Virus record (IMG/VR): IMGVR_UViG_3300020061_000004
Location: 59,281 to 123,280 of that record
DNA length: 64,000 bases
Strand: one strand, 5' to 3'
From: a virus
Shown: one piece after another, positions 5,202 to 60,541 of the stretch
Layout of the letters: each line of letters begins with the position of its first letter
How positions within the stretch are numbered: the first letter of the stretch is position 1
Made by a program: the position numbers and the translations under genes
The notes under the pieces: generated by a model
Database searches by the model: none
The model's input: the letters and a program-made list of their open reading frames with translations, nothing else
Told to the model about the DNA's origin: nothing

Positions 5202-7124
5202 TTAGTCGAGTATTACATCAACTGGGCTAGACAAACTTTCGATGTATCCCAGAATTGCTGTTTCGAATGCTGTACCTGTACCGGTAGGGAAGTATACAAC
5301 CTGCTGATATGAATCAGTATAGGTTTGAGACCAACCCAACACTTTGTAGGTGAATTCATACTCAAGAGTATATTCATCATAGAAAGCGAAAGGATCAGAG
5401 AAGTATACATAACCTTCAGCTTCACGAACAGCAGGGTCCATAGAGTAGTCCTTCAGGAAGTAACCAAGAGACTTAACTTCTTGATCACGAACATAAGCAC
5501 CAACACCTACAGGATACTGTACGTTCTGAAGTTCAGTGATAGGCCAACGATTTTCACAAGGAGAAGCATCGTAGTCTTCATTGTATTCAGATACCTGAAT
5601 GTGAATTGTATCAGCTTCATAAGGATAGTACAGATATGTACATTCTCCAGTGATACGATTGATAAAGGCCGTTTCTATGATAACACCAGCAGATACTACT
5701 GCACCCGGAGCTGCTGTTACTGGAACCCACTCAGAGTTACCAAAGGCAGGAATCTTACCGAAATCAATTTCATCTACCTGACAATCAATACCAACTACAT
5801 TAGAGAAAGTTGTTACTGCATAACCATGTACACAATCTACAGGACCATCAGCAAGCTGAGTAATCGTGAGAGGCTGTCCATTGATTAAGATACCAGCATA
5901 ATAGTCCTGAAGTTCAGTCAGACGGCTAACACCACAAACATTATCTGAAAGGGTAAGGTTAAGAGTCTGAGGGAACTGCCAAAGAACTGGAGTCTGTGCT
6001 GTCCAAGCAGTAGTTGTAGGAGTAGTGATAGTACATTTAGCACTTACATCTCCAAAAGCTTGAATAGAGTCAGTACCAACAGCAGCCTGATTAGCAACAT
6101 TACTTACAATTACATAAGTAGAAAGTTGATTAGGGCTATCGAAGTTAGTACGAACAATTGACTCACCGGGACCTGCAATAGCATAAGCAGTTGCAGCAGC
6201 CGTAAGAGCAGCAGGATTACCAGCATCAGCACGACGTACTACATACAAGAAACCAGCAGGATTCAATGTATAACCAGCAGGACAAGTAGCACAAGAAGGA
6301 AGTACAACAATACCAGCATTTGTGAATGCAGCAGGAGCACCAGCACTTGTAAGACGAGTCATCTGATATGTACTTACAATACCATCACGAGAAGTGCGAA
6401 TTACCACCATTCCAGGATACTGTACCTGTACAAAAGCCAGAGCAGCATTATGTCCACCATCCGCTACAGATAGGGTATATACTGTGTTTGAGAGAGCACC
6501 CGTTGTGTCAACAGCAGTGCTGAGAACTTTCTTAGCTAAAAGCAAACCGGGAGTATCGAAACTATTAAATTTCAGACGAGGATCATTATTGATCTTATCT
6601 ACAAGCTGATCAGCAAGCTGAGAAGCATTAACAGCAGCACAGTTGTCTGTACCACAATCATCGCAACAGCCCGTATCCAGCCAATACTGGCGAATAAGAC
6701 CCTGAACCGAGTAGAGTTTATCAATAGGATTACCTGTAAGTTTGATAAATACTGAACGCTTTTCACCGCAGTTAGCAGTTAAGGTTTTAGTAACATCAAA
6801 ACCGTCGAAACCGATAGCGACTTTCTGATTCTGTCCTTGATGTGCAGTTTTCTTACGGAACCTTGTAATAAGTTTCCCCTTGATCAGCTTAGAAGCCTGA
6901 TTAGTTTTAGGAATACCGCCCATTAAAGGGATAAAAGACAGATCAGGCATACCTTGCCAGATTTGAATTGCTTTGTTATTTGCATAGGTGGGAGCAGGAG
7001 CAGCAGTATAGGTATTGCCATCGACGATACCAATCTGAGAAATACCCAAGTCCACGGTTGTGCCCGATGCAAGTAAGACAGGAGTTTTCGTTACGAATAC
7101 TTGTCTAAACGATTGATTAAGCAT
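5202..7124 (-). CDS. Abundant virion structural protein (auxiliary capsid-like, crAss capsid module)
   Basis: 640 aa, Ala/Thr-rich, biased codons, third gene after the major capsid gene as in crAss-like phages. Confidence 0.6.
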   Translation of the reverse strand: MLNQSFRQVFVTKTPVLLASGTTVDLGISQIGIVDGNTYTAAPAPTYANNKAIQIWQGMPDLSFIPLMGGIPKTNQASKLIKGKLITRFRKKTAHQGQNQKVAIGFDGFDVTKTLTANCGEKRSVFIKLTGNPIDKLYSVQGLIRQYWLDTGCCDDCGTDNCAAVNASQLADQLVDKINNDPRLKFNSFDTPGLLLAKKVLSTAVDTTGALSNTVYTLSVADGGHNAALAFVQVQYPGMVVIRTSRDGIVSTYQMTRLTSAGAPAAFTNAGIVVLPSCATCPAGYTLNPAGFLYVVRRADAGNPAALTAAATAYAIAGPGESIVRTNFDSPNQLSTYVIVSNVANQAAVGTDSIQAFGDVSAKCTITTPTTTAWTAQTPVLWQFPQTLNLTLSDNVCGVSRLTELQDYYAGILINGQPLTITQLADGPVDCVHGYAVTTFSNVVGIDCQVDEIDFGKIPAFGNSEWVPVTAAPGAVVSAGVIIETAFINRITGECTYLYYPYEADTIHIQVSEYNEDYDASPCENRWPITELQNVQYPVGVGAYVRDQEVKSLGYFLKDYSMDPAVREAEGYVYFSDPFAFYDEYTLEYEFTYKVLGWSQTYTDSYQQVVYFPTGTGTAFETAILGYIESLSSPVDVILD

Positions 7125-14592: not shown

Positions 14593-16665
14593 TTACCTGG
14601 ATTGTTTATTATGCTTGAAGGTGAATGTACTCTGTACCTTTCCAAATCCTTGTCCTATCCTTACAAAGGGTGAAGCAAGCATTGGATCATGTACCTTCTT
14701 AGGCATTAGAGGATCAAAGGGTTGTTCAGCTATATTACTAACAGGATAGTATTTATCCAGATGCTTAGCAAATGCTAAAGCATGCCTGAAGGCCACTATA
14801 CGGTCATAGTTACCATCCTTTGGATCATACTTGATAATCTCCATTAGAAGTACAGGGTCCAGAATTCGGGTTATACCAAGCTTGTAGATGGGTTCTCTTG
14901 TAACAGGATGTGTTCCTATCTGTATCTGTTCCTTACAATATTCTATCATTAAGGACATACAGTAGTTAATATTAGCTACTGTTGGTGATAAGCCATATAC
15001 TTTACCACCTTGGTTAGCTCTAGTCTTAGGATTTATTTCTCTTGCAATATTAAATCCCTGTCCAAGCATATGTCCTTTATTCTTACGCTCAAAATACTGG
15101 ATGAATGTACCTGCTGCATTTTCTGGAAAGCATGTAGCATTATAATAATCCATTAACATCTCAACATCTTCATGCCAAGAATCCATTCTCTCAGGACGAG
15201 ATGCCAAAGATGCCACCACCATATTCTGATAGGTTTCACCAGATACATCTGTCATTCTCTTATAGATGAAGAGTGTCCCTAGAGAGTCAGACCAATCTGA
15301 TATATCATTATTATACGGGTCGGCTCCAGCTACATAAAGCCCCATAGGAGCATTTGTAATAGGTTCTTCCCATATTACTATAGGGCAATCTGTGCCTAAG
15401 TTTCCTTTTGTTGGAAACTCTGAGATTGGTAGATCAGTAGGATCAGCATTTTTCTGAATTACCCTACCATTAGAATCTCTATATAGACGTACATAACGTC
15501 CCTTAATTTGATTAGTTTGTAAGTATTCCAGATGCTGTCTAGCTGCTTCCAAAGGGAACGGATTACTACTACCTGATAGAAAGCATTCCTCTGGTGTCAG
15601 AGGATGATACATTACAGCCTTTAAATACTCTTGTTTATCTGGGTCTTTAGACTTGATGAGTCTTTCTTCTTCTATCTTTAAGCGAGCTTTCTCTTTATCT
15701 GATACCTTAATAGGAATTGTCTTAGCTTCTAATCCAATTCCTGTAAATCCTTTTGATAAGAGATAGTCATATAGATTGGAATCAGTCTTACAATCCATTC
15801 GGTAAAGACCAGACATGAATAAGCCAGTCTTCTTTCCTGTCTCTTCATTTACTACTTCTTGGAAGTTATTAGCTGTGGGATGTTCAAATACACGTTTAGC
15901 ATCATTACCTTTCTCAAAACTACCACCAGTACCCACTAGGATTGGAACACAACGCCAGCCGTATGGTGATAGGAACGCTGGTTTATGTGCTTCAAATACT
16001 GGTGAAAATAGATATTTACCAATTTCATCATATACTGCTGCCTTTGCTGTTGTACCAGCCGCGGCTTCTGTATTTGTACCTTCTTCTGCATTACGAATCA
16101 TTATATAACTCCACACATGGTCTTCATTATTCTTGTCTTTAAAACCAAGACGTAATGTTGGCTTCCTCCAGTCTTTATCTAGTTTAGGGATAGCCAATCC
16201 TTGCCACATATGTTTCCATCCAAAATCAATCTTCTCTGTAAGAAGCTTCATGTCTGCTCCATTACCCGCTACAAGTACACTCTGTGAATTCTCATATAAT
16301 ATAGCTGTCATACCAATATGAGAAGCTTCCCATTCTGATTTACCTCCCTGACGTAATCCCACTTCTATATATCCCTTCTGAGCTACACGAGCTTTCTCAA
16401 AATACTCAGCACGTTCCCATTCATTATCTCTAAGATCAGGTAGGGATGGTGTACGTACAATGTTTCCCCACTTATCCTTCTTATCCACAATAATATGCCA
16501 GTGATTCAAATGCCCATATAAAATTCCAGGAATATGAACACCACCAATAGTAATACCCCCCATGCACTTTTCAATTTCCCACTCTACAAGAGAAGTGAAA
16601 TCATCAGTACCGGGAGGTGGCAAAGTTTTTATATTTCTAAAAAACTCAGTTGTTTTAATCTGCAT
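14593..16665 (-). CDS. terL: Terminase large subunit
   Basis: RQGGKS Walker A, VYDEIG Walker B, GTGG coupling motif, nuclease motifs AGADPY and GNYDRI. Confidence 0.9.
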   Translation of the reverse strand: MQIKTTEFFRNIKTLPPPGTDDFTSLVEWEIEKCMGGITIGGVHIPGILYGHLNHWHIIVDKKDKWGNIVRTPSLPDLRDNEWERAEYFEKARVAQKGYIEVGLRQGGKSEWEASHIGMTAILYENSQSVLVAGNGADMKLLTEKIDFGWKHMWQGLAIPKLDKDWRKPTLRLGFKDKNNEDHVWSYIMIRNAEEGTNTEAAAGTTAKAAVYDEIGKYLFSPVFEAHKPAFLSPYGWRCVPILVGTGGSFEKGNDAKRVFEHPTANNFQEVVNEETGKKTGLFMSGLYRMDCKTDSNLYDYLLSKGFTGIGLEAKTIPIKVSDKEKARLKIEEERLIKSKDPDKQEYLKAVMYHPLTPEECFLSGSSNPFPLEAARQHLEYLQTNQIKGRYVRLYRDSNGRVIQKNADPTDLPISEFPTKGNLGTDCPIVIWEEPITNAPMGLYVAGADPYNNDISDWSDSLGTLFIYKRMTDVSGETYQNMVVASLASRPERMDSWHEDVEMLMDYYNATCFPENAAGTFIQYFERKNKGHMLGQGFNIAREINPKTRANQGGKVYGLSPTVANINYCMSLMIEYCKEQIQIGTHPVTREPIYKLGITRILDPVLLMEIIKYDPKDGNYDRIVAFRHALAFAKHLDKYYPVSNIAEQPFDPLMPKKVHDPMLASPFVRIGQGFGKVQSTFTFKHNKQSR

Positions 16666-16978
16666 CTCTCTGCATTCTATGAGGAATATTAGTATTCCCT
16701 TTTGCTTCAGCCTTAGTTGCTTCTTTTTCTCTTAATTTATCTATCACTTCCAAAAGAAGAAGATAGTTCTTCATGGTATCTTGTACAGATTTAATCTGTT
16801 GTTCAATAGAAGCCACTACTGTACGCATCATACCACCATTCTTCGTCTCCTTATAGTCCATCCTATCTGTTAGTTGATCTATAGGATTGATGTCAATGTA
16901 ATTACGCCATTTCTTTAATTGCTCTTCAGCCCAATCTAAATCTGATGTTATGTAACTATTAACTTTCTTTGCTGCCAT
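16655..16978 (-). CDS. Hypothetical protein, possible terminase small subunit
   Basis: Helical 107-aa ORF overlapping the terL start. Confidence 0.4.
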   Translation of the reverse strand: MAAKKVNSYITSDLDWAEEQLKKWRNYIDINPIDQLTDRMDYKETKNGGMMRTVVASIEQQIKSVQDTMKNYLLLLEVIDKLREKEATKAEAKGNTNIPHRMQRDAD

Positions 16979-17444
16979 CTATTTGGTTTTGAGCACTAGG
17001 TTGGATTTGAACCAACGGTTGTACGGTTTTGCAGACCGGTGCCTTGGACCCCTCAGCCACTAGTGCAGGTTTCTGTGCGAAATCTAAATACTTTGATATT
17101 AAAATCTTATTCTTAAGAACGTAATCAAATATCTTCTCCACTATATATCCTGTTATATATGCTCTTGTCTCACCTAGTTTCTCTACTTCAGTCTTCTCGA
17201 TGATGTAGTCTACAATGTGGGACACTTCATGTACAATGCAGTTGGGAGTGAGTCCATGTAACTGATAGAAGATGAAGTATTTATGATCAGGTGTATCTAG
17301 TGATAAACCATAATAGCCTCCTTCTGCAAGAGGCTCCATACCATACTTCTTAAGATATCTTGGTACTATCTTTTCAATCTCTTCATCTATAATAATAGTG
17401 AGGTTGAACTCAAAGATAGGTATCTTTATAGTTGTCTTATACAT
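16959..17444 (-). CDS. Putative zincin-like metalloprotein
   Basis: HEVSH (HExxH) motif followed by ETRAY. Confidence 0.5.
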   Translation of the reverse strand: MYKTTIKIPIFEFNLTIIIDEEIEKIVPRYLKKYGMEPLAEGGYYGLSLDTPDHKYFIFYQLHGLTPNCIVHEVSHIVDYIIEKTEVEKLGETRAYITGYIVEKIFDYVLKNKILISKYLDFAQKPALVAEGSKAPVCKTVQPLVQIQPSAQNQIDGSKES

Positions 17445-17454
17445 AGAAGATATT

Positions 17455-17529
17455 TGGAAGCGGGAGCGGGATTTGAACCCGCGACCTTTGAGTTATGAGC
17501 CCAACGAGCTACCTCTGCTCTACCCCGCT
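17455..17529 (-). tRNA. tRNA-Met(CAT), initiator-like
   Basis: AGCGGGGTAGAGCAGAGGTAGCTCGTTGGGCTCATAACTCAAAGGTCGCGGGTTCAAATCCCGCTCCCGCTTCCA; body resembles fMet tRNA, CCA encoded. Confidence 0.9.
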
Positions 17530-17535
17530 ATATTA

Positions 17536-17763
17536 TTAATCTTCTATTTGTGTTGCCTTATCAGCTAGATCAGTCTCAAGTTCATCACGATAGTTTTCAA
17601 ACTTCTTGAGAAGTTCTTCATCACTCCAGTTATAATTACCTGTTTGGGGGCGCATCACATGCACAATATGCTGTGAGATACTATACTGGGGAAACAACTC
17701 TACTATCTCTACGAAATGATGAAAAATCTGTTGCTTGATCTGAGTTTTTTGTTTATTGCTCAT
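17536..17763 (-). CDS. Hypothetical protein
   Basis: 75-aa ORF coupled to the upstream gene. Confidence 0.6.
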   Translation of the reverse strand: MSNKQKTQIKQQIFHHFVEIVELFPQYSISQHIVHVMRPQTGNYNWSDEELLKKFENYRDELETDLADKATQIED

Positions 17764-18181
17764 TGGTTTTTGTTTTGTATGCTGTCCATTTAAGTTCCAT
17801 ATTGATGTTGTTATTCTGATTAAAGGCTAACAACTCTTTATCCTTGCAAGTACAATTTGATAAGTTATCAAAATTGCAACAATCAATTCCACAATTTGCT
17901 TCTAGTGAAGCTGTCTTTCTAGTGATTGTACATCCACACATAATACAATGTTCATCAAATCTATCTGTCTTATATCCAGTAGATACTGCATTTGAACTAT
18001 TGAATGGACACGTTGCACATATAAATCTTCTTCTTGCTATTTCTGCTTGTTCATCTTCAGGAAGGATATCATATTGCAATTTCACTTGATTCACTATCCC
18101 CTCCACTATCAAGTCTGCATTCTGTACTACTGTCGGCAGTAGTTTTACATATTCTATTAGTCCTTTTAGCATAAGCTTCAT
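17753..18181 (-). CDS. Cys-rich putative Zn-binding protein
   Basis: ICATCPF, HCIMCGC and further Cys clusters. Confidence 0.6.
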   Translation of the reverse strand: MKLMLKGLIEYVKLLPTVVQNADLIVEGIVNQVKLQYDILPEDEQAEIARRRFICATCPFNSSNAVSTGYKTDRFDEHCIMCGCTITRKTASLEANCGIDCCNFDNLSNCTCKDKELLAFNQNNNINMELKWTAYKTKTNEQ

Positions 18182-18512
18182 AATACTGTGTTGCTAATGT
18201 ATTCCTCTGTATTAAGGCTTTTCTAAGTTTGCCATAGTTTACTTCGAGGAGCAGGTCTTTTGTTGATTCTTTATACCTGATAGACTTCTTTATATTCCTA
18301 ATCTTATTAATTGTGGACTTTATAAAGTAGTCTATCTTACGTTTACTTGTTGTTATTGTTCCTAAGTACTTGATACTCACCGATGTAGACTCAAGGCCAC
18401 TTAGTTTTTTCCTTACTTCTTTCCAATAAAAATCATTCACACTATCAACAATCTTCTCTTCTATTCCCATCTCACGGGATACTATCTTGCTGATTACTTG
18501 AATAGTTTTCAT
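18069..18512 (-). CDS. Putative HU/IHF-like DNA-binding protein
   Basis: Basic; helix-turn-helix start then VSIKYLGTI strand as in the IHF-like proteins of crAss-like phages. Confidence 0.5.
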   Translation of the reverse strand: MKTIQVISKIVSREMGIEEKIVDSVNDFYWKEVRKKLSGLESTSVSIKYLGTITTSKRKIDYFIKSTINKIRNIKKSIRYKESTKDLLLEVNYGKLRKALIQRNTLATQYYEAYAKRTNRICKTTADSSTECRLDSGGDSESSEIAI

Positions 18513-18853
18513 TAGCTATTATCTATTTTAATCAGTACACCAATCACAGGATTAACAGGAAAGTCTAAGTCTGCATTAAGTGTGTAGTCTTTAGAATCTA
18601 CAGGACGCACTAACATTCCAAACTTCTTAAGTTTACTCATTGTATTCTTCAGACTATCCTCTGTTTTGAGAATATTTGAAGAAAGAATAAGGTCTTTAGT
18701 TTTTCTATTAATCCTATATACCATGAAATAAGCAAGGACTGTGAGTTCAGTATCAGAAAGTCGTATATTCTTGAGTAAACAAAAGATACCAATTACTTTC
18801 TTTGCCTGTTCCACCTTGCTATTGGTTTTAAGTTTGATTTTTACAAGCTGCAT
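18512..18853 (-). CDS. Hypothetical winged-helix-like protein (start MQLVKI)
   Basis: ORF downstream of a promoter; LKNTMSKLKKFGMLVR pattern. Confidence 0.5.
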   Translation of the reverse strand: MQLVKIKLKTNSKVEQAKKVIGIFCLLKNIRLSDTELTVLAYFMVYRINRKTKDLILSSNILKTEDSLKNTMSKLKKFGMLVRPVDSKDYTLNADLDFPVNPVIGVLIKIDNS

Positions 18854-18910
18854 TTCCTTAATTTCTACACAAAGATAAGTAATTGATTTCAATTAACCAA
18901 ATCTTTTTCA

Positions 18911-19396
18911 CTAATTATGATTATTTGCTGTAATTAAGTCTCTATATCTCTCATTTACAATCTTAGCCTGAGCTGATGAAGGTATTCTTCCTGATTCTAA
19001 TAGGGAAAGGATACTTCTGAAGTAAGGAGCAGGGGATATTTGTAATATCTTCTTACAACGCTTCTTATATTCCTCTATAACTCCTTGTATTCTAGTGGTA
19101 TCCTTTGATTTATTCTTCTTTACTCTTCTGGTTGATGAAGGTTTCTTCATGAAAGAAGCTATTGTTCTTTTCTCATGTGCTTTTGAATGACAATCTGCAC
19201 AAAGAGTAACTAAAGCTTTCAAAGGATATTCCCAAGGACTCTTATCTTTGATGTAATAGAGATGATGAACATGCAACATACAATTTGTAGCCTTACAATT
19301 CCTGCATGTATACTTATCACGGTTTAAAACCTGAACCCTAACTACATCAACCCAGCGTGTATCAAGTAATAATATTTTATATTCTTCTTTTGTCAT
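18911..19396 (-). CDS. HNH endonuclease (start probably MTKEEY)
   Basis: RDKYTCRNC...LHVHH...LVTLCADCH. Confidence 0.8.
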   Translation of the reverse strand: MTKEEYKILLLDTRWVDVVRVQVLNRDKYTCRNCKATNCMLHVHHLYYIKDKSPWEYPLKALVTLCADCHSKAHEKRTIASFMKKPSSTRRVKKNKSKDTTRIQGVIEEYKKRCKKILQISPAPYFRSILSLLESGRIPSSAQAKIVNERYRDLITANNHN

Positions 19397-19476
19397 AATA
19401 TTCTCTGTTGAGTATGCAATACTACGGAAAATTATTGACATTATGCCACTTTTTTCAATATTTATTTTTATATAAT

Positions 19477-19504
19477 ATAAAAACCCCTCACTTGGAGGGG
19501 CTTG
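19477..19504 (-). terminator. Intrinsic terminator
   Basis: AAGCCCCTC-CAAGT-GAGGGGTTTT. Confidence 0.7.
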
Positions 19505-19524
19505 CAACAAAAGAAGGTAGCAGA

Positions 19525-19671
19525 TTAGACTTTTTTAGCATCTGCTTCGACAGTAGAAGCTACTTCTTCAACCTTTTCAATAATCGGCTCGATCTTTTCC
19601 TTGTTATTACGGTAAATTAATATACCTGCAATGAACAAACCAAGAGATACAATAGCAACGAGTGGAACCAT
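19525..19671 (-). CDS. Small single-pass membrane protein (48 aa, not in the ORF track)
   Basis: MVPLVAIVSLGLFIAGILIYRNNKEKIEPIIEKVEEVASTVEADAKKV, with its own promoter (about 19690-19721) and terminator. Confidence 0.65.
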   Translation of the reverse strand: MVPLVAIVSLGLFIAGILIYRNNKEKIEPIIEKVEEVASTVEADAKKV

Positions 19672-19721
19672 ATGTTTCAAATTTAGATACAAAGATAATA
19701 ACTTCTTAGGAAATTACCAAA

Positions 19722-19795
19722 TGGCACGGGAGGCTTGATTCGAACAAACATCAAAGGTTTTGGAGACCTCTATTCTACCATTGAACTACTCCCGT
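19722..19795 (-). tRNA. tRNA-Trp(CCA)
   Basis: Cloverleaf, anticodon loop CTCCAAA, CCA end. Confidence 0.9.
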
Positions 19796-19796
19796 A

Positions 19797-19871
19797 TGGG
19801 GTGAAAGGACGGTAATGATCCGTCTTCTATGCCTTCACAGGGCACCGCATCACCTTAATGCTTCAGACACC
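19797..19871 (-). tRNA. tRNA-His(GTG), atypical acceptor stem
   Basis: Loop CTGTGAA, G-1:C73, CCA end; acceptor GTGTCTG/CTTTCAC has three mismatches. Confidence 0.8.
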
Positions 19872-19880
19872 ATGTATTAT

Positions 19881-19953
19881 GTACCCGATCATGGGAACGA
19901 TCCACATTCTCCTGCTTCAAAGGCAGGCATAATACCTTTATACTACTCGGGTA
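19881..19953 (-). tRNA. tRNA-Gln(TTG)
   Basis: Stem CCTGC/GCAGG, loop CTTTGAA. Confidence 0.8.
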
Positions 19954-19957
19954 TAAG

Positions 19958-20028
19958 TTGGGGAAGATTGAATCGAACAACCACCAAAGGTGTCAGAGAC
20001 CTTTGTACTACCATTATACGATTCCCCA
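19958..20028 (-). tRNA. tRNA-Gln(CTG)
   Basis: Stem AAGGT/ACCTT, loop CTCTGAC, Gln-type body. Confidence 0.85.
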
Positions 20029-20074
20029 AAATGAAGGTTCCTTACTCAATGAAGTATGCCTACAACCCAAAATG

Positions 20075-20147
20075 TGGTACAGGTTAGTTATGATCTAACT
20101 CCTCGGGATTTTCAGTCCCGCGCTTCTACCAAGTTAGCTTCTGTACC
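20075..20147 (-). tRNA. tRNA-Phe(GAA)
   Basis: Stem CGGGA/TCCCG, loop CTGAAAA. Confidence 0.9.
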
Positions 20148-20152
20148 ATAAG

Positions 20153-20226
20153 AGCCCTAGCCGGAACTCGAAGCCGGTCTGTTCCGCATTACAAGTGCGG
20201 CGCTGCACCATATCAGCATCTCGGGC
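20153..20226 (-). tRNA. tRNA-Thr(TGT)
   Basis: Stem CCGCA/TGCGG, loop CTTGTAA. Confidence 0.85.
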
Positions 20227-20275
20227 AGTTGACATTTGATTTTCACATAAAACAAAGTTTCCAAACAAAACATCG

Positions 20276-20376
20276 CTAATGGGGTACGATTCGAACGTAC
20301 ATGCAGAGGTTATTAATTCCCTATATCTGCACCACCGAGAAAAGGAGGCGAGTCTGCCAAGTTCCAACACCCATTA
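20276..20376 (-). ncRNA. Aberrant class II tRNA-like RNA (about 30-nt variable arm, loop TTTTCTC)
   Basis: Perfect acceptor TAATGGG/CCCATTA, T-arm GTACG-TTCGAAT-CGTAC, Leu/Ser-type D region, long TGCAGA...TCTGCA arm. Confidence 0.7.
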
Positions 20377-20381
20377 ATCTG

Positions 20382-20453
20382 CGGGGAAGGTATGGATCGA
20401 ACATACGACCTGAGAGTTAACAGCTCCCTGCTCTACCGCTGAGCTACTTCCCC
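20382..20453 (-). tRNA. tRNA-Asn(GTT)
   Basis: Canonical cloverleaf, loop CTGTTAA. Confidence 0.9.
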
Positions 20454-20510
20454 AAAATAGGGTGTAAGGGTTCTTCCTTACACAGGGTGCGCTTACCCCA
20501 CTTCCTATTG

Positions 20511-20586
20511 CCGGCAATACGGGATTTGAACCCGTGGTCTTCCCGTAGACAGCGGGACAGGGACAACCAGACTCCCCTAAATGCCG
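20511..20586 (-). tRNA. tRNA-Asp(GTC)
   Basis: Stem TCCCG/CGGGA, loop CTGTCTA (pyrimidine at 37), G73. Confidence 0.85.
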
Positions 20587-20594
20587 AATAAAAG

Positions 20595-20665
20595 TCTAGC
20601 TTGTCTGAATCGAACAGCTCTTCATGCTTCCAAGGCACGGGTGCTACCATCACACCCCAAACTAG
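20595..20665 (-). tRNA. tRNA-Pro(TGG)
   Basis: Stem CGTGC/GCATG, loop CTTGGAA; weak T-stem. Confidence 0.75.
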
Positions 20666-20697
20666 AAATAAAAAACCCTCCTTTAAGGGGAGGGCTT
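20666..20697 (-). terminator. Attenuator terminator of tRNA operon A
   Basis: AAGCCCTCC-CCTTAAA-GGAGGGTTTTTTATTT directly ahead of tRNA-Pro. Confidence 0.85.
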
Positions 20698-20721
20698 GTA
20701 TGAACACGCTTGAAAATTTAG

Positions 20722-20802
20722 TTATCGTGATATAATATAGCCTCTCCCAACGATTGTATCGGGTTGAAAATTAAAGGTATTATTATGCCAATTCTGAATC
20801 AT
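20722..20802 (-). CDS. Leader peptide A (26 aa) MIQNWHNNTFNFQPDTIVGRGYIISR
   Basis: Hand translation; codons 3-16 encode only Q, N, W, H, T, F, P, D, matching the downstream tRNAs. Confidence 0.85.
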   Translation of the reverse strand: MIQNWHNNTFNFQPDTIVGRGYIISR

Positions 20803-20806
20803 ACAG

Positions 20807-20838
20807 CAAAGATAAGAAGAATATTTGATATTACCAAA
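20807..20838 (-). promoter_or_regulatory. Bacteroidota-type promoter of tRNA operon A
   Basis: TTTGG...TATCTTTG, ending 4 nt before the leader ATG. Confidence 0.85.
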
Positions 20839-20857
20839 TTTCTTATAAAAATAAATG

Positions 20858-20940
20858 TGGGAGCTGATGGAGTTGAACCACCCGAGTCCTAAGACAGCAG
20901 ATTTACAGTCTGCCCCGCTACCCCTACGGTATAAACTCCC
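20858..20940 (-). tRNA. tRNA-Tyr(GTA)
   Basis: Loop CTGTAAA, long variable arm. Confidence 0.9.
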
Positions 20941-21026
20941 AAATAGCTACCCTCGGTATTTCCGAGACCAGCTTACAATATAGGGTCACTCACTTAAGAG
21001 GCTCACTAGTTTCCTAGTTACTTTAG

Positions 21027-21113
21027 AGGAAGGTGTGGGATTTGAACCCACGGAACTTTTACATCCTCCGGTTTTCAAGACCGGTGCAATCAGCCAGACT
21101 CTGCCAACCTTCC
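21027..21113 (-). tRNA. tRNA-Ser(TGA)
   Basis: Loop CTTGAAA, long variable arm. Confidence 0.9.
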
Positions 21114-21187
21114 TAAAGCTCACCCCGTAGGTGAGCAGCGCAATTAAGGCTTTGCGATGCCATTACAGCCACCCTTTGGGCAGTGTG

Positions 21188-21272
21188 AGGAGAGTAGAAG
21201 ATTCGAACTTCTGGGGCTTTAACACCCAACACTTTAGCAAAGTGTTACGATAAACCTCTCTGACAACTCTCC
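21188..21272 (-). tRNA. tRNA-Ser(GCT)
   Basis: Loop TTGCTAA, long variable arm. Confidence 0.9.
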
Positions 21273-21277
21273 TTATG

Positions 21278-21357
21278 TATCCCTAACATGATTTGAACAT
21301 GCACCCCGAAGGAGCAGATTTTAAGTCTGCCGCGTCTACCAGTTTCGCCATAGAGAT
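21278..21357 (-). tRNA. tRNA-Leu(TAA)
   Basis: Loop CTTAAAA, Leu-type D arm. Confidence 0.9.
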
Positions 21358-21363
21358 AAGTTG

Positions 21364-21448
21364 TAGGTATAGTAAGAGTCGAACTTACACGCCCATTACA
21401 GGCATCAGTTTCTAAGACTGACGTGTCTACCAATTCCACCATATACCC
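21364..21448 (-). tRNA. tRNA-Leu(TAG)
   Basis: Loop CTTAGAA, Leu-type D arm. Confidence 0.9.
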
Positions 21449-21450
21449 AT

Positions 21451-21488
21451 AAAATAAAAACCCCCGCTATCCGAATTAGCAGGGGAGT
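21451..21488 (-). terminator. Attenuator terminator of tRNA operon B
   Basis: ACTCCCCTGCTAATTCGGATAGCGGGGGTTTTTATTTT directly ahead of tRNA-Leu(TAG). Confidence 0.85.
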
Positions 21489-21528
21489 GACGATATTGTC
21501 TTTTACGAACGCTTCTTTATCACATACT

Positions 21529-21591
21529 TTACCCCTTACTATCGAGTGATAGATAACTTAAGGAGAGCAAATATGAGTTTAAATTCTTCAT
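21529..21591 (-). CDS. Leader peptide B (20 aa) MKNLNSYLLSLSYLSLDSKG; an in-frame upstream ATG lies at 21657
   Basis: Hand translation; codons 6-16 encode only Leu, Ser, Tyr, matching the downstream tRNAs. Confidence 0.85.
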   Translation of the reverse strand: MKNLNSYLLSLSYLSLDSKG

Positions 21592-21665
21592 TTTAATTAG
21601 GGGTCTCAGGAAAGATATAGAAACAATCGTGTGTACAATAAATCTATATCTATCCATCAACACAA

Positions 21666-21697
21666 CAAAGGTAATACAAATAATTGATATTACCAAA
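21666..21697 (-). promoter_or_regulatory. Bacteroidota-type promoter of tRNA operon B
   Basis: TTTGG...TACCTTTG. Confidence 0.85.
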
Positions 21698-21705
21698 TTT
21701 AAGTG

Positions 21706-21778
21706 TAGTAATGATGGGAGTTGAACCCACTACCCCGGAGGTATCAGCTCCGTACTCTAACCGTTGAGCTACACTACT
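21706..21778 (-). tRNA. tRNA-Ile(GAT)
   Basis: Stem CGGAG/CTCCG, loop CTGATAC. Confidence 0.9.
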
Positions 21779-21780
21779 AG

Positions 21781-21852
21781 TGGACTGAGATGGAATTGAA
21801 CCATCGACTTGCACATTATGAGTGTGCTGCTCTACCCCTGAGCTATCAGTCC
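21781..21852 (-). tRNA. tRNA(CAT), probably Ile2 (lysidine) rather than elongator Met
   Basis: Loop CTCATAA; GGAC- acceptor like bacterial Ile2; next to tRNA-Ile; the leader contains ATA and no internal ATG. Confidence 0.75.
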
Positions 21853-21859
21853 ATAAAAG

Positions 21860-21931
21860 TACTCTGTGACGGTTACGATCCGTCTTCCACGCTTTGAAGG
21901 AGCGTTATCCTAGCCACTAGACGAACAGAGC
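21860..21931 (-). tRNA. tRNA-Glu(TTC)
   Basis: Glu-type body, stem ACGCT/AGCGT, loop CCTTCAA (C at 33). Confidence 0.8.
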
Positions 21932-21938
21932 ATATATG

Positions 21939-22010
21939 AGCACCAGTGGGTAATCGAAACCCAATCCGCGCATTGGAAGTGCGCTATAATAGCCGTTATA
22001 CGACTGATGC
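21939..22010 (-). tRNA. tRNA-Gly(TCC)
   Basis: Loop CTTCCAA, U73. Confidence 0.9.
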
Positions 22011-22012
22011 AT

Positions 22013-22087
22013 TGGTAGAGATACCAAGAATCAAACTTGGGTCTAGGGATTAGAAGGCCCTCGTTCTATTCATTGAACTACATCTCT
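22013..22087 (-). tRNA. tRNA-Arg(TCT)
   Basis: Loop CTTCTAA, CCA end. Confidence 0.9.
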
Positions 22088-22088
22088 A

Positions 22089-22164
22089 TGGAGGACACAG
22101 AAAGAGTCAAACTTTCGTTCCCTGCTTCGTAGGCAGGAGTTCTATTCAGCTGAACTATGCGTCC
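22089..22164 (-). tRNA. tRNA-Arg(ACG)
   Basis: Loop CTACGAA, CCA end. Confidence 0.9.
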
Positions 22165-22235
22165 TAATACTGGGCCAGAGTATACAGGTTACTGTCCCTC
22201 TATGAATTTCACATAGTTACCCCAGTAGAATACTG

Positions 22236-22308
22236 TCTCCCCGTTCGGAATCGAACCGAACCCCACGGTTTAAAAGACCGTTGCCTACAACCAGTTTGCT
22301 ACAAGGAG
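22236..22308 (-). tRNA. tRNA-Lys(TTT)
   Basis: Stem ACGGT/ACCGT, loop CTTTTAA. Confidence 0.85.
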
Positions 22309-22313
22309 TTTGT

Positions 22314-22353
22314 AAAAACAAAAACCCGAAGCTGCTAGTTGCGGCTCCGGGCT
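22314..22353 (-). terminator. Attenuator terminator of tRNA operon C
   Basis: AGCCCGGAGCCGC-AACTA-GCAGCTTCGGGTTTTTGTTTTT directly ahead of tRNA-Lys. Confidence 0.85.
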
Positions 22354-22375
22354 CTGTTAAAAGAAATTGTTAGTA

Positions 22376-22477
22376 TTATCCTAAATCAATATCTTGTAGA
22401 CATATAGCTCCGGAGCCAGGTTTTCTTCCTGCCTCGCGAATAATTTCTATGCCACCGATATTGATAACTAAATTCAT
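22376..22477 (-). CDS. Leader peptide C (33 aa) MNLVINIGGIEIIREAGRKPGSGAICLQDIDLG
   Basis: Hand translation; 12 of codons 7-19 encode I, G, E, R, K, matching the downstream tRNAs. Confidence 0.85.
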   Translation of the reverse strand: MNLVINIGGIEIIREAGRKPGSGAICLQDIDLG

Positions 22478-22481
22478 AATG

Positions 22482-22513
22482 CAAAGATATGTTAAATATT
22501 TGAAACTACCAAA
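22482..22513 (-). promoter_or_regulatory. Bacteroidota-type promoter of tRNA operon C
   Basis: TTTGG...TATCTTTG, ending 4 nt before the leader ATG. Confidence 0.85.
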
Positions 22514-22746
22514 TCTTGTTTTAAAAAGGCTATTACTTCTTTAAGTTCTTGTTCAGGAGTAGATGGCCTTATCATAAATTCTCTTTCCCGATTTGTTACC
22601 ATATATCCAAAAACATTTGAGGATGCTAGGAAACCCTTTGAAATATTAAGAAATGATGGAAGGTGTGTTCCAGACATAAATCCATAATCTCCTCTACTAT
22701 GAGAGAGTCCTGTCTCCTTATCTATATAAGCTAATACAGCATTCAT
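22492..22746 (-). CDS. Hypothetical protein
   Basis: 84-aa ORF. Confidence 0.55.
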   Translation of the reverse strand: MNAVLAYIDKETGLSHSRGDYGFMSGTHLPSFLNISKGFLASSNVFGYMVTNREREFMIRPSTPEQELKEVIAFLKQDLVVSNI

Positions 22747-23030
22747 TATACAAAGATTAAACTACACAATGCTTTTGATATCCATACAATCTCACCTTTA
22801 ACTGGTTCTTGATCAATCTCAATAGATATATGAGTGCCATCAATCCCTGCAAACTCTCCATTATCTAAGGGTGTCATATTCCAATGGCTTATCTCACGTT
22901 TATCATTGAGGATGGTATAATAGCTACCATCCTCTTTTATTAATCTTATGCCGGGACAGAGATATTTCTTTGGAATATATCTATCCCTCCAATCTCCCTG
23001 TATCATCAGAGTCACTCGTGTGGGTCTCAT
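22746..23030 (-). CDS. Hypothetical protein
   Basis: 94-aa ORF, TAATG coupling. Confidence 0.55.
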   Translation of the reverse strand: MRPTRVTLMIQGDWRDRYIPKKYLCPGIRLIKEDGSYYTILNDKREISHWNMTPLDNGEFAGIDGTHISIEIDQEPVKGEIVWISKALCSLIFV

Positions 23031-23968: not shown

Positions 23969-24724
23969 TTAGCCAAGATGTTTCATCCATTTTACTTCTT
24001 TTATAATTTCCCTCCAGCGTGTAGCTAAGAGGTTTGAATAAATACTATCATCAAGTCCATAGTTCCCAAGAGACCATCCATCATTACACTCTACCAATAC
24101 TGTCTCTCCTGTAGATAGAACACCAACATCCAGACTATATCCAGAAGGAGCTTCTGTATAAGCTGCTATCATCTTCATCACCTTCTCCTTATTGGGAGCT
24201 ATAAAAGGATCACCAAGATAGTGCTTCATTCCCTTTAATACTCCATTGATGATATAGCATCTATATTCAGAAACGAAGTCTACCACTTCACTATAGAATA
24301 TCTTTGTATCCTGAGGAATCTTACTGAAGTAAATAAGAGCATCTGTTGGTGTTTTAACTACTCCTGCTATAAACTCCTTAGCTTTTCCATCTGGCTTTAC
24401 AAATAGAGGCCATTTACGCTGCTCACTATACCAAGTAATATCCTCCATTTTACCATTTCCTACTTCTCTTTTAAGGAACTCTTCTTTCCATAATTGGTAG
24501 GGAACATTAATAGCCTGCTTTGGTGGTAGTCCTATCTTCTCGAAATACTTATTGGTGGTTTCTATATAAGCTACAAGAATTACCCAAGGAGCTACAGGTA
24601 CTTCATCAATATCCTCAAAGAATACTATATTAGCTTGCTTCCCTTTAAACCCCATATAGGCAGATACCATCCAGTCTGCGATTGGGAAGTTATTAAGACT
24701 CTCTATGTATATTTTATAATCCAT
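23969..24724 (-). CDS. ATP-grasp domain protein (DUF4343/R2K-like)
   Basis: PLFVKP, SEYRCYI, YSLDVG, LVECNDGWSLG motifs. Confidence 0.75.
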   Translation of the reverse strand: MDYKIYIESLNNFPIADWMVSAYMGFKGKQANIVFFEDIDEVPVAPWVILVAYIETTNKYFEKIGLPPKQAINVPYQLWKEEFLKREVGNGKMEDITWYSEQRKWPLFVKPDGKAKEFIAGVVKTPTDALIYFSKIPQDTKIFYSEVVDFVSEYRCYIINGVLKGMKHYLGDPFIAPNKEKVMKMIAAYTEAPSGYSLDVGVLSTGETVLVECNDGWSLGNYGLDDSIYSNLLATRWREIIKEVKWMKHLG

Positions 24725-59088: not shown

Positions 59089-60541
59089 TACCGAATATCG
59101 AAGAAATTGTCGTAAAATAAAAGATAAGTATTATGTATCTGGTGAAGAATGTTTTCTCATAGGAGATACATGGTATGCCAATACATCAAAGCTTATCACT
59201 TATGATTATGAGAAGGAGATATATGTTCTGATAAAGGACACTCCTCTCGTATATGGTGTAGTGGGTTTTAAGGAAGATGGGGTTCACGAGATGGGATATT
59301 TTACAGAGAATAAGTATAACAATATTCTCGTAAATATTCATGGCTATGGTTCTATATGGTGCTTTAATCAAGCAACATTGGAAAAAGGAGGATTTGTAGA
59401 AAATCTTTCTGATGGTCTGTGGTATTATAAAAAGAACCATTCAGCTTCTGCACTTGCTGGTTTTAAAAAGATCACAAGTAAGAAGGTGTATCGGGATAAA
59501 GGTTATAATATTGAGGACAACAAACAAGAGTTTGATCAGAAGATAAAGTCTTTTGCTGCAAGTCCCTTTGAAATACCTACAAAAGCCCACAGAATGGCTA
59601 AGTATTTAGGGAATACGACTTTTGGAATGGAAATAGAAACTGCACTTGGATATCTTCCTGAACATATACAATCCCGTCATGGGGTTGTTATATGTCGGGA
59701 TGGAAGTATTGATAATGCAGAATTTGTAACTGTTCCAATGCAAGGTGCAAGAGGTTTAGCTAATATCAAACATCTTAGCACTGAACTTTGTAAAAGGACT
59801 ATTCCTGATATCAAGTGTTCTTTTCATATCCATCTTGGAACTCTTCCTGATCATAGGCTATTTATCGTAGCATTATGGGCATTGTCTATAAAAATTCAGG
59901 ATGAACTCTATACAATGTTTCCTGGTTTCAAGACACATTGGGAAAAGTTCAAAAAGAAGGATTATAATCAGAAGACAAGAAAGCTTGGATTTACTACTCT
60001 TAAACCCTCTTTCACCAAAGATCAGTATTTGGCATATATTGATGATGCATATTATCGTATATCTAAGTTTCTGAATGAAGGAAATGAACCTGATGACCGC
60101 TTTAATAGGCAGAATCATCAGCATGTGAGAACTGCAAAGTGGGAAAGGGCACAAAGGTATTATTGGATCAATTTCATGAATATGTTCTTTAGTGAGAGGA
60201 AGACGATTGAGTTTAGACTCCATCAAGCCACCACTAATGGACAGAAGATGACTAATTGGTTGTTTATCTGTAATGCTATTGTAAAATATGCACAACAGAA
60301 TCCTAGGAAAATATTGTCTTCTCCTGACACTATTTCTCTTAACGAAGTGATGGATTATTACAAAGACACTTTCAAATCTGAAGAAGCGGGATTTCTCTCC
60401 GACTATATGAAAGCTTATATTGCTGACAGAAAGGCATATTTTGCTAATGATATAGCCAAAGGAGATTATGAAAGCAAAAAAGAGCTTCAAACAGACAAGG
60501 ATTATGTCTTTGAGTATAAAGGAGTTTTGTGGCTTTTCTAA
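59009..60541 (+). CDS. Putative amidoligase (Amidoligase_2-like)
   Basis: TFGMEIET, RDGSI, EFVT, CSFHIH, RYYWIN, TIEFRLH. Confidence 0.8.
   Translation: MAKELITVRYKDNPELKYKTVKTVSGNTEYRRNCRKIKDKYYVSGEECFLIGDTWYANTSKLITYDYEKEIYVLIKDTPLVYGVVGFKEDGVHEMGYFTENKYNNILVNIHGYGSIWCFNQATLEKGGFVENLSDGLWYYKKNHSASALAGFKKITSKKVYRDKGYNIEDNKQEFDQKIKSFAASPFEIPTKAHRMAKYLGNTTFGMEIETALGYLPEHIQSRHGVVICRDGSIDNAEFVTVPMQGARGLANIKHLSTELCKRTIPDIKCSFHIHLGTLPDHRLFIVALWALSIKIQDELYTMFPGFKTHWEKFKKKDYNQKTRKLGFTTLKPSFTKDQYLAYIDDAYYRISKFLNEGNEPDDRFNRQNHQHVRTAKWERAQRYYWINFMNMFFSERKTIEFRLHQATTNGQKMTNWLFICNAIVKYAQQNPRKILSSPDTISLNEVMDYYKDTFKSEEAGFLSDYMKAYIADRKAYFANDIAKGDYESKKELQTDKDYVFEYKGVLWLF

Follow-up and report, generated by a model that had tools for sequence, protein, structure and literature searches.

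Candidate leader-peptide attenuators that list the tRNAs of their own downstream blocks in a soil phage and its relatives

Multivalent leaders that work by attenuation are familiar from enterobacteria, such as those of thr (Thr, Ile) and ilvGMEDA (Ile, Val, Leu), beside the leaders of trp, his, leu and pheA, and the pheM leader attenuator controls pheST, which encodes phenylalanyl-tRNA synthetase. The E. coli tRNA-Phe genes pheU and pheV were considered as a leader precedent and rejected, as the promoter lies directly before the tRNA and there is no leader open reading frame (ORF). Here we describe a 64,000-nucleotide stretch of viral DNA (positions 59,281 to 123,280 of the IMG/VR virus record IMGVR_UViG_3300020061_000004; the window hereafter) in which one unit of a tRNA array, unit B, is likely, judging from sequence and modelled folds, to be a ribosome-mediated (leader-peptide) transcription attenuator for a block of tRNA-Leu, Leu, Ser, Ser and Tyr genes. 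The nearest functional analogue that we found in print is the trn L-array of Anabaena sp. PCC 7120, which is silent until translation is impaired (PMC8421152; PMC10272220); neither "leader peptide" nor "attenuat" appears in the text of PMC8421152. Our literature search turned up no report of a leader peptide or an attenuator ahead of tRNA genes, although papers beyond those searched, or supplements, could hold one, and an Rfam scan of 16500-23000 at E<=1 gave no leader family (Trp, His, Leu, Thr) and no T-box, only tRNA-type matches and weak chance matches.

The window is the final 64 kb of a 123-kb record with an estimated completeness of 76%, and belongs to a phage of soil origin whose large terminase (TerL) has its closest matches in crAss-like and Cellulophaga phages, the best isolate match being Leptolyngbya phage Lbo-JY46 (44.7%). 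On the minus strand 22 tRNA genes were called, and a 23rd, for His, was recovered by Rfam and by ARAGORN at a lower threshold. Twenty-one of the window's tRNAs make up an array at 22308-19722 (-) that is divided into three units (A, B and C), each headed by a promoter-like motif of Bacteroidota type. The features of unit B, all of whose coordinates refer to the minus strand, are collected in Table 1. The five tRNAs of block B measure 81-88 nt each and are the sole long-arm tRNAs called in the window; 3' of tRNA-Tyr there is a T-rich stretch and then the next promoter (20838-20807).

Leader-peptide attenuators are recognised by a short translatable ORF behind a promoter, a run of codons for the amino acids concerned, an intrinsic terminator before the first regulated gene and mutually exclusive pairings of four RNA segments (1:2, 2:3 and 3:4), and each of these has a counterpart, for the pairings a predicted one, in unit B. 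The ORF at 21591-21529, which lies 3' of the promoter-like motif (21697-21666) and is presumably translated, has A at positions -1 to -3 of its ATG and contains, at 21576-21544, exactly the eleven Leu, Ser and Tyr codons that the initial annotation had listed as codons 6-16. Four Leu codons and three Ser codons, all of them different, are used in this run, TAT appears in it twice, and all five tRNAs of block B have at least one cognate codon in the leader. With Leu, Ser and Tyr making up a fraction of 0.19 of the 14,557 residues encoded by the long ORFs of the window, the bound P for a run of 11 is 1.1e-7, and 0 of 200,000 simulated peptides reached it; in the remaining five frames of this DNA the runs are 1-4 codons long. 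Similar runs occur in the leaders of unit A (9 codons for Lys/Arg/Gly/Glu/Met-or-Ile2/Ile) and unit C (14 codons for Pro/Asp/Asn/Thr/Phe/Gln/His/Trp), and when the leaders of A, B and C are scored on the blocks of the other units the runs are of just 1-3.

Table 1. Features of unit B and its tRNA block, in window coordinates.
Feature	Position	Strand	Description
Unit B promoter (putative)	21666..21697	-	Bacteroidota type: -33 TTTG, -7 TAnnTTTG
5' hairpin	21609..21655	-	arms 21655-21643 and 21621-21609, 13 nt, 92% complementary, 21 nt apart
Leader ORF	21529..21591	-	20 codons and stop (21531-21529); ATG at 21591
Sensor run	21544..21576	-	codons 6-16, exclusively Leu, Ser or Tyr
Segment 1	21565-21548	-	3' part of sensor; pairs with segment 2 in the minimum-energy fold
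Segment 2	21532..21543	-	codons 17-20, to one base before stop; candidate partner of sensor or terminator 5' arm
Predicted intrinsic terminator and T-run	21451..21485	-	segments 3 and 4, 21485-21461; T-run 21460-21451
Putatively regulated block B	20857..21448	-	tRNA-Leu(tag), tRNA-Leu(taa), tRNA-Ser(gct), tRNA-Ser(tga), tRNA-Tyr(gta)

The window holds 16 copies of the promoter-like motif where 2.76 are expected, a count that 0 of 100 shuffles attained, and five of the copies lie on the minus strand around the tRNA array, one of them ahead of each of the three units. Both the consensus and a spacing of 4-5 nt between motif and transcription start are those given for Flavobacterium johnsoniae in PMC6847099, and by analogy with this spacing transcription of unit B would start at about 21661-21662. 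In units A and C, as in the B and C units of the related loci L003 and L004, the ATG stands 4 nt past the -7 box; with the spacing published there, this places the ATG at or adjoining the transcription start, and these units would therefore yield leaderless mRNAs. Unit B of the window differs, with 74 nt between motif and leader ATG.

Downstream of the ORF, the predicted terminator consists of 9 pairs, 6 of them G-C, with a 7-nt loop (-14.5 kcal/mol), and its T-run finishes 3 nt ahead of the first gene of the block, the tRNA-Leu beginning at 21448. The best partner of the terminator 5' arm is 21541-21532, the stretch that the initial annotation had named as able to pair with it (-11.4 vs -6.4±2.0 kcal/mol for 1000 shuffles, 1.9% of which are as good). 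In the minimum-energy fold of 21591-21451 (-35.2 kcal/mol, z -2.7), codons 9-15 are paired with codons 17-20 and the terminator is formed. We then simulated ribosome positions by masking the footprint and folding the nascent RNA up to the terminator 5' arm. With the A site stalled at codons 6-14, 5-9 of the 9 arm bases are paired with segment 2; the count is 0 of 9 for a stall at codons 15-16, for a ribosome placed at the stop and for RNA free of ribosomes. The modelled pairings 1:2, 2:3 and 3:4 are mutually exclusive, and the logic is that of a trp-type attenuator, in which an untranslated leader likewise leads to termination.

On this basis, unit B would work as follows. RNA polymerase would begin at about 21661 and a ribosome would initiate at the ATG at 21591. 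When charged cognate tRNAs are plentiful, the ribosome would pass the eleven sensor codons to the stop and cover segment 2, so that the terminator at 21485-21461 forms and transcription stops at 21451. When decoding is slow, it would stall in the sensor, occupying segment 1 and freeing segment 2, which could then pair with the terminator 5' arm and let the polymerase continue into the tRNA genes; stalling is thus expected to give read-through. With no ribosome, 1:2 and 3:4 would form, leading to termination. Units A and C would place their own tRNA sets under the same control, and the promoters and terminators of the units are presumably read by the RNA polymerase of the host. The signal for unit B is probably the decoding speed of Leu, Ser and Tyr codons, the tRNAs being made only when this is slow, and since the tRNA product would itself be the thing sensed, the circuit would amount to direct negative feedback, with supply on demand.

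Using TerL searches of IMG/VR, we collected 53 loci, of which 12 have at least three tRNAs in the fetched flank; the other 41 have 0-2 tRNAs there and no unit. We left out L005, L006 and L016, which have the same tRNA pattern as L003, L007 and L015, and L008, in which the contig end cuts the array. Three automatic candidates were dropped, namely the window gap at an odd tRNA-like element, one in L040 that stands before Phe and follows an inserted ORF, and a spurious Leu call made at low threshold over leader A of L004, and unit A of both L003 and L004 was added through a separate look. The final set comprises 18 units of promoter, ORF, terminator and tRNAs in 9 arrays including the window, and the TerL identity of the array set to the window goes from 73% down to ~39%. 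The same design is present in two cultured phages, Lbo-JY46 and Cellulophaga phage phi17:2. A megablast of 20800-22300 against phages gave solely matches of the size of tRNA-Tyr (6-7% coverage), and a search with a 251-aa neighbour protein (23969-24724) found no relatives among viral contigs. The four sequencing records listed for 19600-22600 are DNA or of unknown type, with no RNA run among them.

Across these units the composition of the leader follows the content of the block. The run scored on the unit's own block has P<=0.01 in 16 of the 18 units (17 with an alternative ORF in L011) and P<=1e-4 in 10. Within genomes, in the six arrays with two or three units, the own block is the best for 15 of 15 leaders. 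Among all 18 blocks, it is top-ranked for 12 leaders and ranks second or third for another 4, for which the higher-scoring block is the homologous block of a relative; the lowest ranks are those of L007 (rank 6), where the match is weak because the Tyr gene was not called, and of L041 (rank 12). Altogether 122 of the 128 block tRNAs are represented by one or more cognate codons in the leader of their own unit, against 78.1±7.5 when the leaders are permuted among blocks (maximum 105 in 10,000 permutations), and other reading frames across the units give runs of at most 6. As a comparison, the same script applied to phage T5 picked out 31 small ORFs ahead of tRNA blocks, and no run in them exceeds 2.

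The match holds where tRNAs have changed blocks. L011 and L015 have a block in which Leu, Ser and Tyr are joined by Pro, Gln, His and Arg, and its leader mixes exactly those, while the second block groups Trp, Phe, Asn, Asp and Thr with Gly, Cys, Ala and Arg, all listed in the second leader; in L015 this block additionally holds Lys, Ile, Met and Val, which its leader lists as well. The longest such list, in the leader of L015 unit 2, goes up to 14 tRNA genes for 12 amino acids. In L040 and Lbo-JY46, Arg(acg) and Trp are grouped with Pro, Thr, Phe, Gln and His and the leader gains Arg and Trp codons; in phi17:2, Glu is grouped with Pro, Gln, His, Leu and Arg and the leader gains Glu codons; and in Lbo-JY46 a leader with six Cys codons stands ahead of a block with two Cys tRNAs. 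For each of the relocated tRNAs Arg(acg), Trp, His, Gln, Pro, Glu, Cys, Val and Ala, codons appear in the leader of the new block, and the order of the peptide is not conserved while its composition tracks the block. The claim that all canonical class II tRNAs are grouped in the unit B operon is correct for the window, and the same grouping is seen in L003, L004, L007 and L040; because it is absent in L011, L015 and phi17:2, it is not a rule of the system.

The folding features recur as well. The partner of the terminator 5' arm lies at codons ~15-28 (17-22 in 13 units), in most cases directly behind the sensor; in 15 of 18 units it outperforms 95% of shuffles. When the units are folded at full length, the minimum-energy structure of 17 of 18 has segment 2 paired upstream with the sensor and the terminator formed, and a simulated stall leads to 2:3 pairing in 17 of 18. 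Between L003 and L004, compared by eye, the differences in the B sensor are all synonymous, and for one substitution in segment 2 the terminator arm has a matching one. Anatomy, recurrence in relatives with 31-73% TerL identity and covariation of leader and block thus lend support to the proposal of the initial annotation that a Leu/Ser/Tyr leader-peptide attenuator precedes the class II tRNAs.

Several results weigh against this interpretation, or against its simplest form. The units share descent, so 18 units are not 18 independent events. In unit 2 of L011, our fixed rule chose an overlapping ORF that does not match, and the matching ORF (run of 17) was picked after seeing the data. The leader of L041 mismatches its own block and is a true miss. 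The antiterminator partner is not significant in unit C of L003 (0.083) or in units 1 and 2 of L040 (0.168 and 0.425), and in the simulations 2:3 pairing is still allowed with the ribosome at the stop in 6 of 18 units (prevented in 12) and without a ribosome in 8 of 18 (prevented in 10). Lbo-JY46, recorded on the cyanobacterium Leptolyngbya boryana, carries the Bacteroidota-like promoter motif at its tRNA units; either a phage factor reads the motif or the host assignment needs rechecking, and we found no paper naming this phage in the literature. Finally, codon choice shows no tuning to the phage anticodons above codon usage, 200 of 257 codons being readable by standard wobble against 189.5 expected from window codon usage. 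Standard wobble covers 10 of the 13 member codons of unit B, and all 13 are covered if U34 reads the full box; CTC (twice) and TCC in the leader require U34 reading C. The suggestion that the leader polls isoacceptors consequently stands in so far as every one of the five tRNAs has a cognate codon; in the choice of codons, which is at the codon-usage expectation, it finds no backing, and with no such tuning, leader and block match by amino acid or by codon box.

The L041 locus deserves a description of its own. Its leader (~6230-6560) is of the Pro/Gln/His/Arg/Leu/Ser/Tyr type (compare L011 and L015) and has a strong antiterminator and terminator, and only Pro, Val, Gly and later Cys tRNAs follow. 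It has the look of a leader left behind when most of the block tRNAs were lost or moved elsewhere.

Among other explanations, the one that survives best concerns the 5' region of unit B, where the initial annotation had noticed about 70 nt holding a hairpin and an in-frame ATG at 21657, both of which are present, and had raised the possibility of a 42-aa form or a second control layer. According to this view, the leader starts at 21657, or the hairpin acts as a second layer that affects initiation or the transcript. The upstream ATG shares the frame of the leader, opens 22 codons without a stop and lies ~5 nt from the expected transcription start, comparable with the leaderless ATGs of units A and C, and either start keeps the sensor in frame. 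Small upstream ORFs, mostly hydrophobic, stand between promoter and leader in units 1 and 2 of L040 (5445-5644 and 6396-6456) and in L042 (185-313), their stops overlapping the leader ATG. Further, the 11 nt at 21594-21604, 5' of the leader ATG, are 82% complementary to segment 2 (21531-21541), which therefore has a third candidate partner enclosing the whole ORF; this pairing is not part of the minimum-energy fold. Yet the hairpin, which is stable (-19 kcal/mol, z -4.33; 0 of 200 shuffles as good), begins at the upstream ATG (21657-21655), which sits at its foot and would be occluded, and the hairpin was not seen in relatives, the closest of which, L003 and L004, have no extension either; a second copy of the hairpin was not found in the 123-kb record. 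The leader starting at 21591 opens with Met-Lys, as do those of L003, L004, L007, L015, L040 and Lbo-JY46 at the homologous downstream ATG. On these grounds we took 21591 as the start and consider the 42-aa form, and a second layer, for which we saw no evidence, unlikely. We regard the hairpin as a structure of the 5' end; a stabilising stem-loop would be our guess for its role.

Less probable again is that the same attenuator parts respond to amino-acid starvation, that is to uncharged tRNA, and not to the size of the tRNA pool. A stalled ribosome can't distinguish a missing from an uncharged tRNA, and the architecture is that of classical attenuators; extra tRNA, however, wouldn't relieve amino-acid starvation, and the leaders list exactly their own downstream tRNAs, up to the 14 genes of L015 unit 2, which fits tRNA supply better than a metabolic pathway. 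That the ORFs are not sensors at all, and either encode a peptide with its own function or match their blocks by chance, flanked by a promoter that is constitutive and a terminator that leaks, is very improbable in our view, since composition and not order of the peptide is kept in step with the block, chance is excluded (bound P 1e-7; 0 of 10,000 permutations reach the observed coverage), other frames and T5 lack comparable runs, and a constitutive terminator before tRNA genes with a matched antiterminator would be purposeless.

Starting from the favoured attenuation mechanism, a further step, which we put forward as a possibility with considerable doubt, is that the attenuators are codon-resolved alarms for the loss of host tRNAs. 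A host anticodon nuclease or phage shut-off would remove a set of tRNAs, only the matching leader would stall, and only the matching block of replacement tRNAs would then be induced. If this were true, the partition into blocks (Leu/Ser/Tyr; Lys/Arg/Gly/Glu/Ile; Pro/Asp/Asn/Thr/Phe/Gln/His/Trp) would mirror which tRNAs are lost together. The reasons why phages carry tRNAs are debated and include codon compensation, replacement of degraded host tRNAs and escape from anticodon nucleases. A sensor that lists its own tRNAs would let the phage gauge decoding speed for each tRNA set and supply on demand, and induction specific to the unit is measurable, for which phi17:2 and Lbo-JY46, as cultured carriers, offer bench systems. 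Leaders also predict the block membership of unrecognised tRNA-like genes: among the tRNAs missed by ARAGORN at its default threshold and signalled by leader codons are His (unit C), Ala (L003, L004 and L011) and Lys (phi17:2).

Several further observations were made around the arrays. Between Asn and Thr in block C there is a tRNA-like element of ~100 nt (20276-20376, -) whose acceptor and T arms are perfect and whose extra arm is oversized. It is kept in L003 (~6195-6297) and L004 (6191-6286), where ARAGORN calls a 96-nt Asp(gtc); the sensor run of leader C has no Glu codon, and Asp is already covered by a normal tRNA. In L003 and L004, block A ends with Val and an unusual Ala(tgc) tRNA, both missing from block A of the window, whose leader A (22376-22477, -) retains one Val and two Ala codons. 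A tRNA-Cys (16991-17066, -) lies within the last codons of a 161-aa ORF of the same strand (16959-17444, -) and adjoins the terminase module, a position that it also has in L003 and L004, and a small ORF directly follows the array of the window (19525-19692, -).

In L015, a Glu-rich ORF of 26 codons (2583-2664) with its own promoter-like motif enters the 5' half of tRNA-Glu, the block member that is unpolled by the main leader; no terminator was seen for this ORF. In Lbo-JY46 (L058, PP438436.1; 1780-6640), a homing endonuclease and other ORFs break up one block. In phi17:2 (L059, NC_021798.1; 7335-7436 and 9258-9377), annotated gp078 covers a tRNA-Ser(tga) that has no annotation, the second tRNA unit has its leader ORF annotated as gp077, with a TTG start assigned inside the promoter, and the second block also holds an unannotated tRNA-Lys.

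Compared with known systems, the phage units resemble the leaders of enterobacterial amino-acid operons in having a short ORF with a run of regulatory codons, four segments that pair as 1:2, 2:3 and 3:4, and an intrinsic terminator before the first regulated gene, with a stalled ribosome that would select the antiterminator. They differ from them in controlling tRNAs and not enzymes, so that the sensed molecule would be the product, in sensors that list 3 to 12 amino acids, and in Bacteroidota-type promoters, the lack of a Shine-Dalgarno sequence and, in several units, predicted leaderless mRNAs. With pheM they share leader-peptide attenuation of a gene of the translation apparatus and not of biosynthesis, although the target of pheM is a synthetase and not a tRNA and it senses one amino acid. 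T-box riboswitches are likewise transcription attenuators that read the state of a specific tRNA, but they bind the uncharged tRNA directly, have no ORF and control synthetase and amino-acid genes. Like the trn array of Anabaena (PMC8421152; PMC10272220), the phage array would be an accessory tRNA array turned on when translation is in trouble; there, by contrast, the ribbon-helix-helix (RHH) repressor TrcR acts at the promoter, with direct repeats over the -10 box and start site, the signal is a global stress and is not codon-specific, and the promoter of unit B is of another type. The units described here would thus extend leader-peptide attenuation to a new class of target, tRNA genes whose product is the signal, to sensors of up to 12 amino acids and to phages with Bacteroidota-type promoters.

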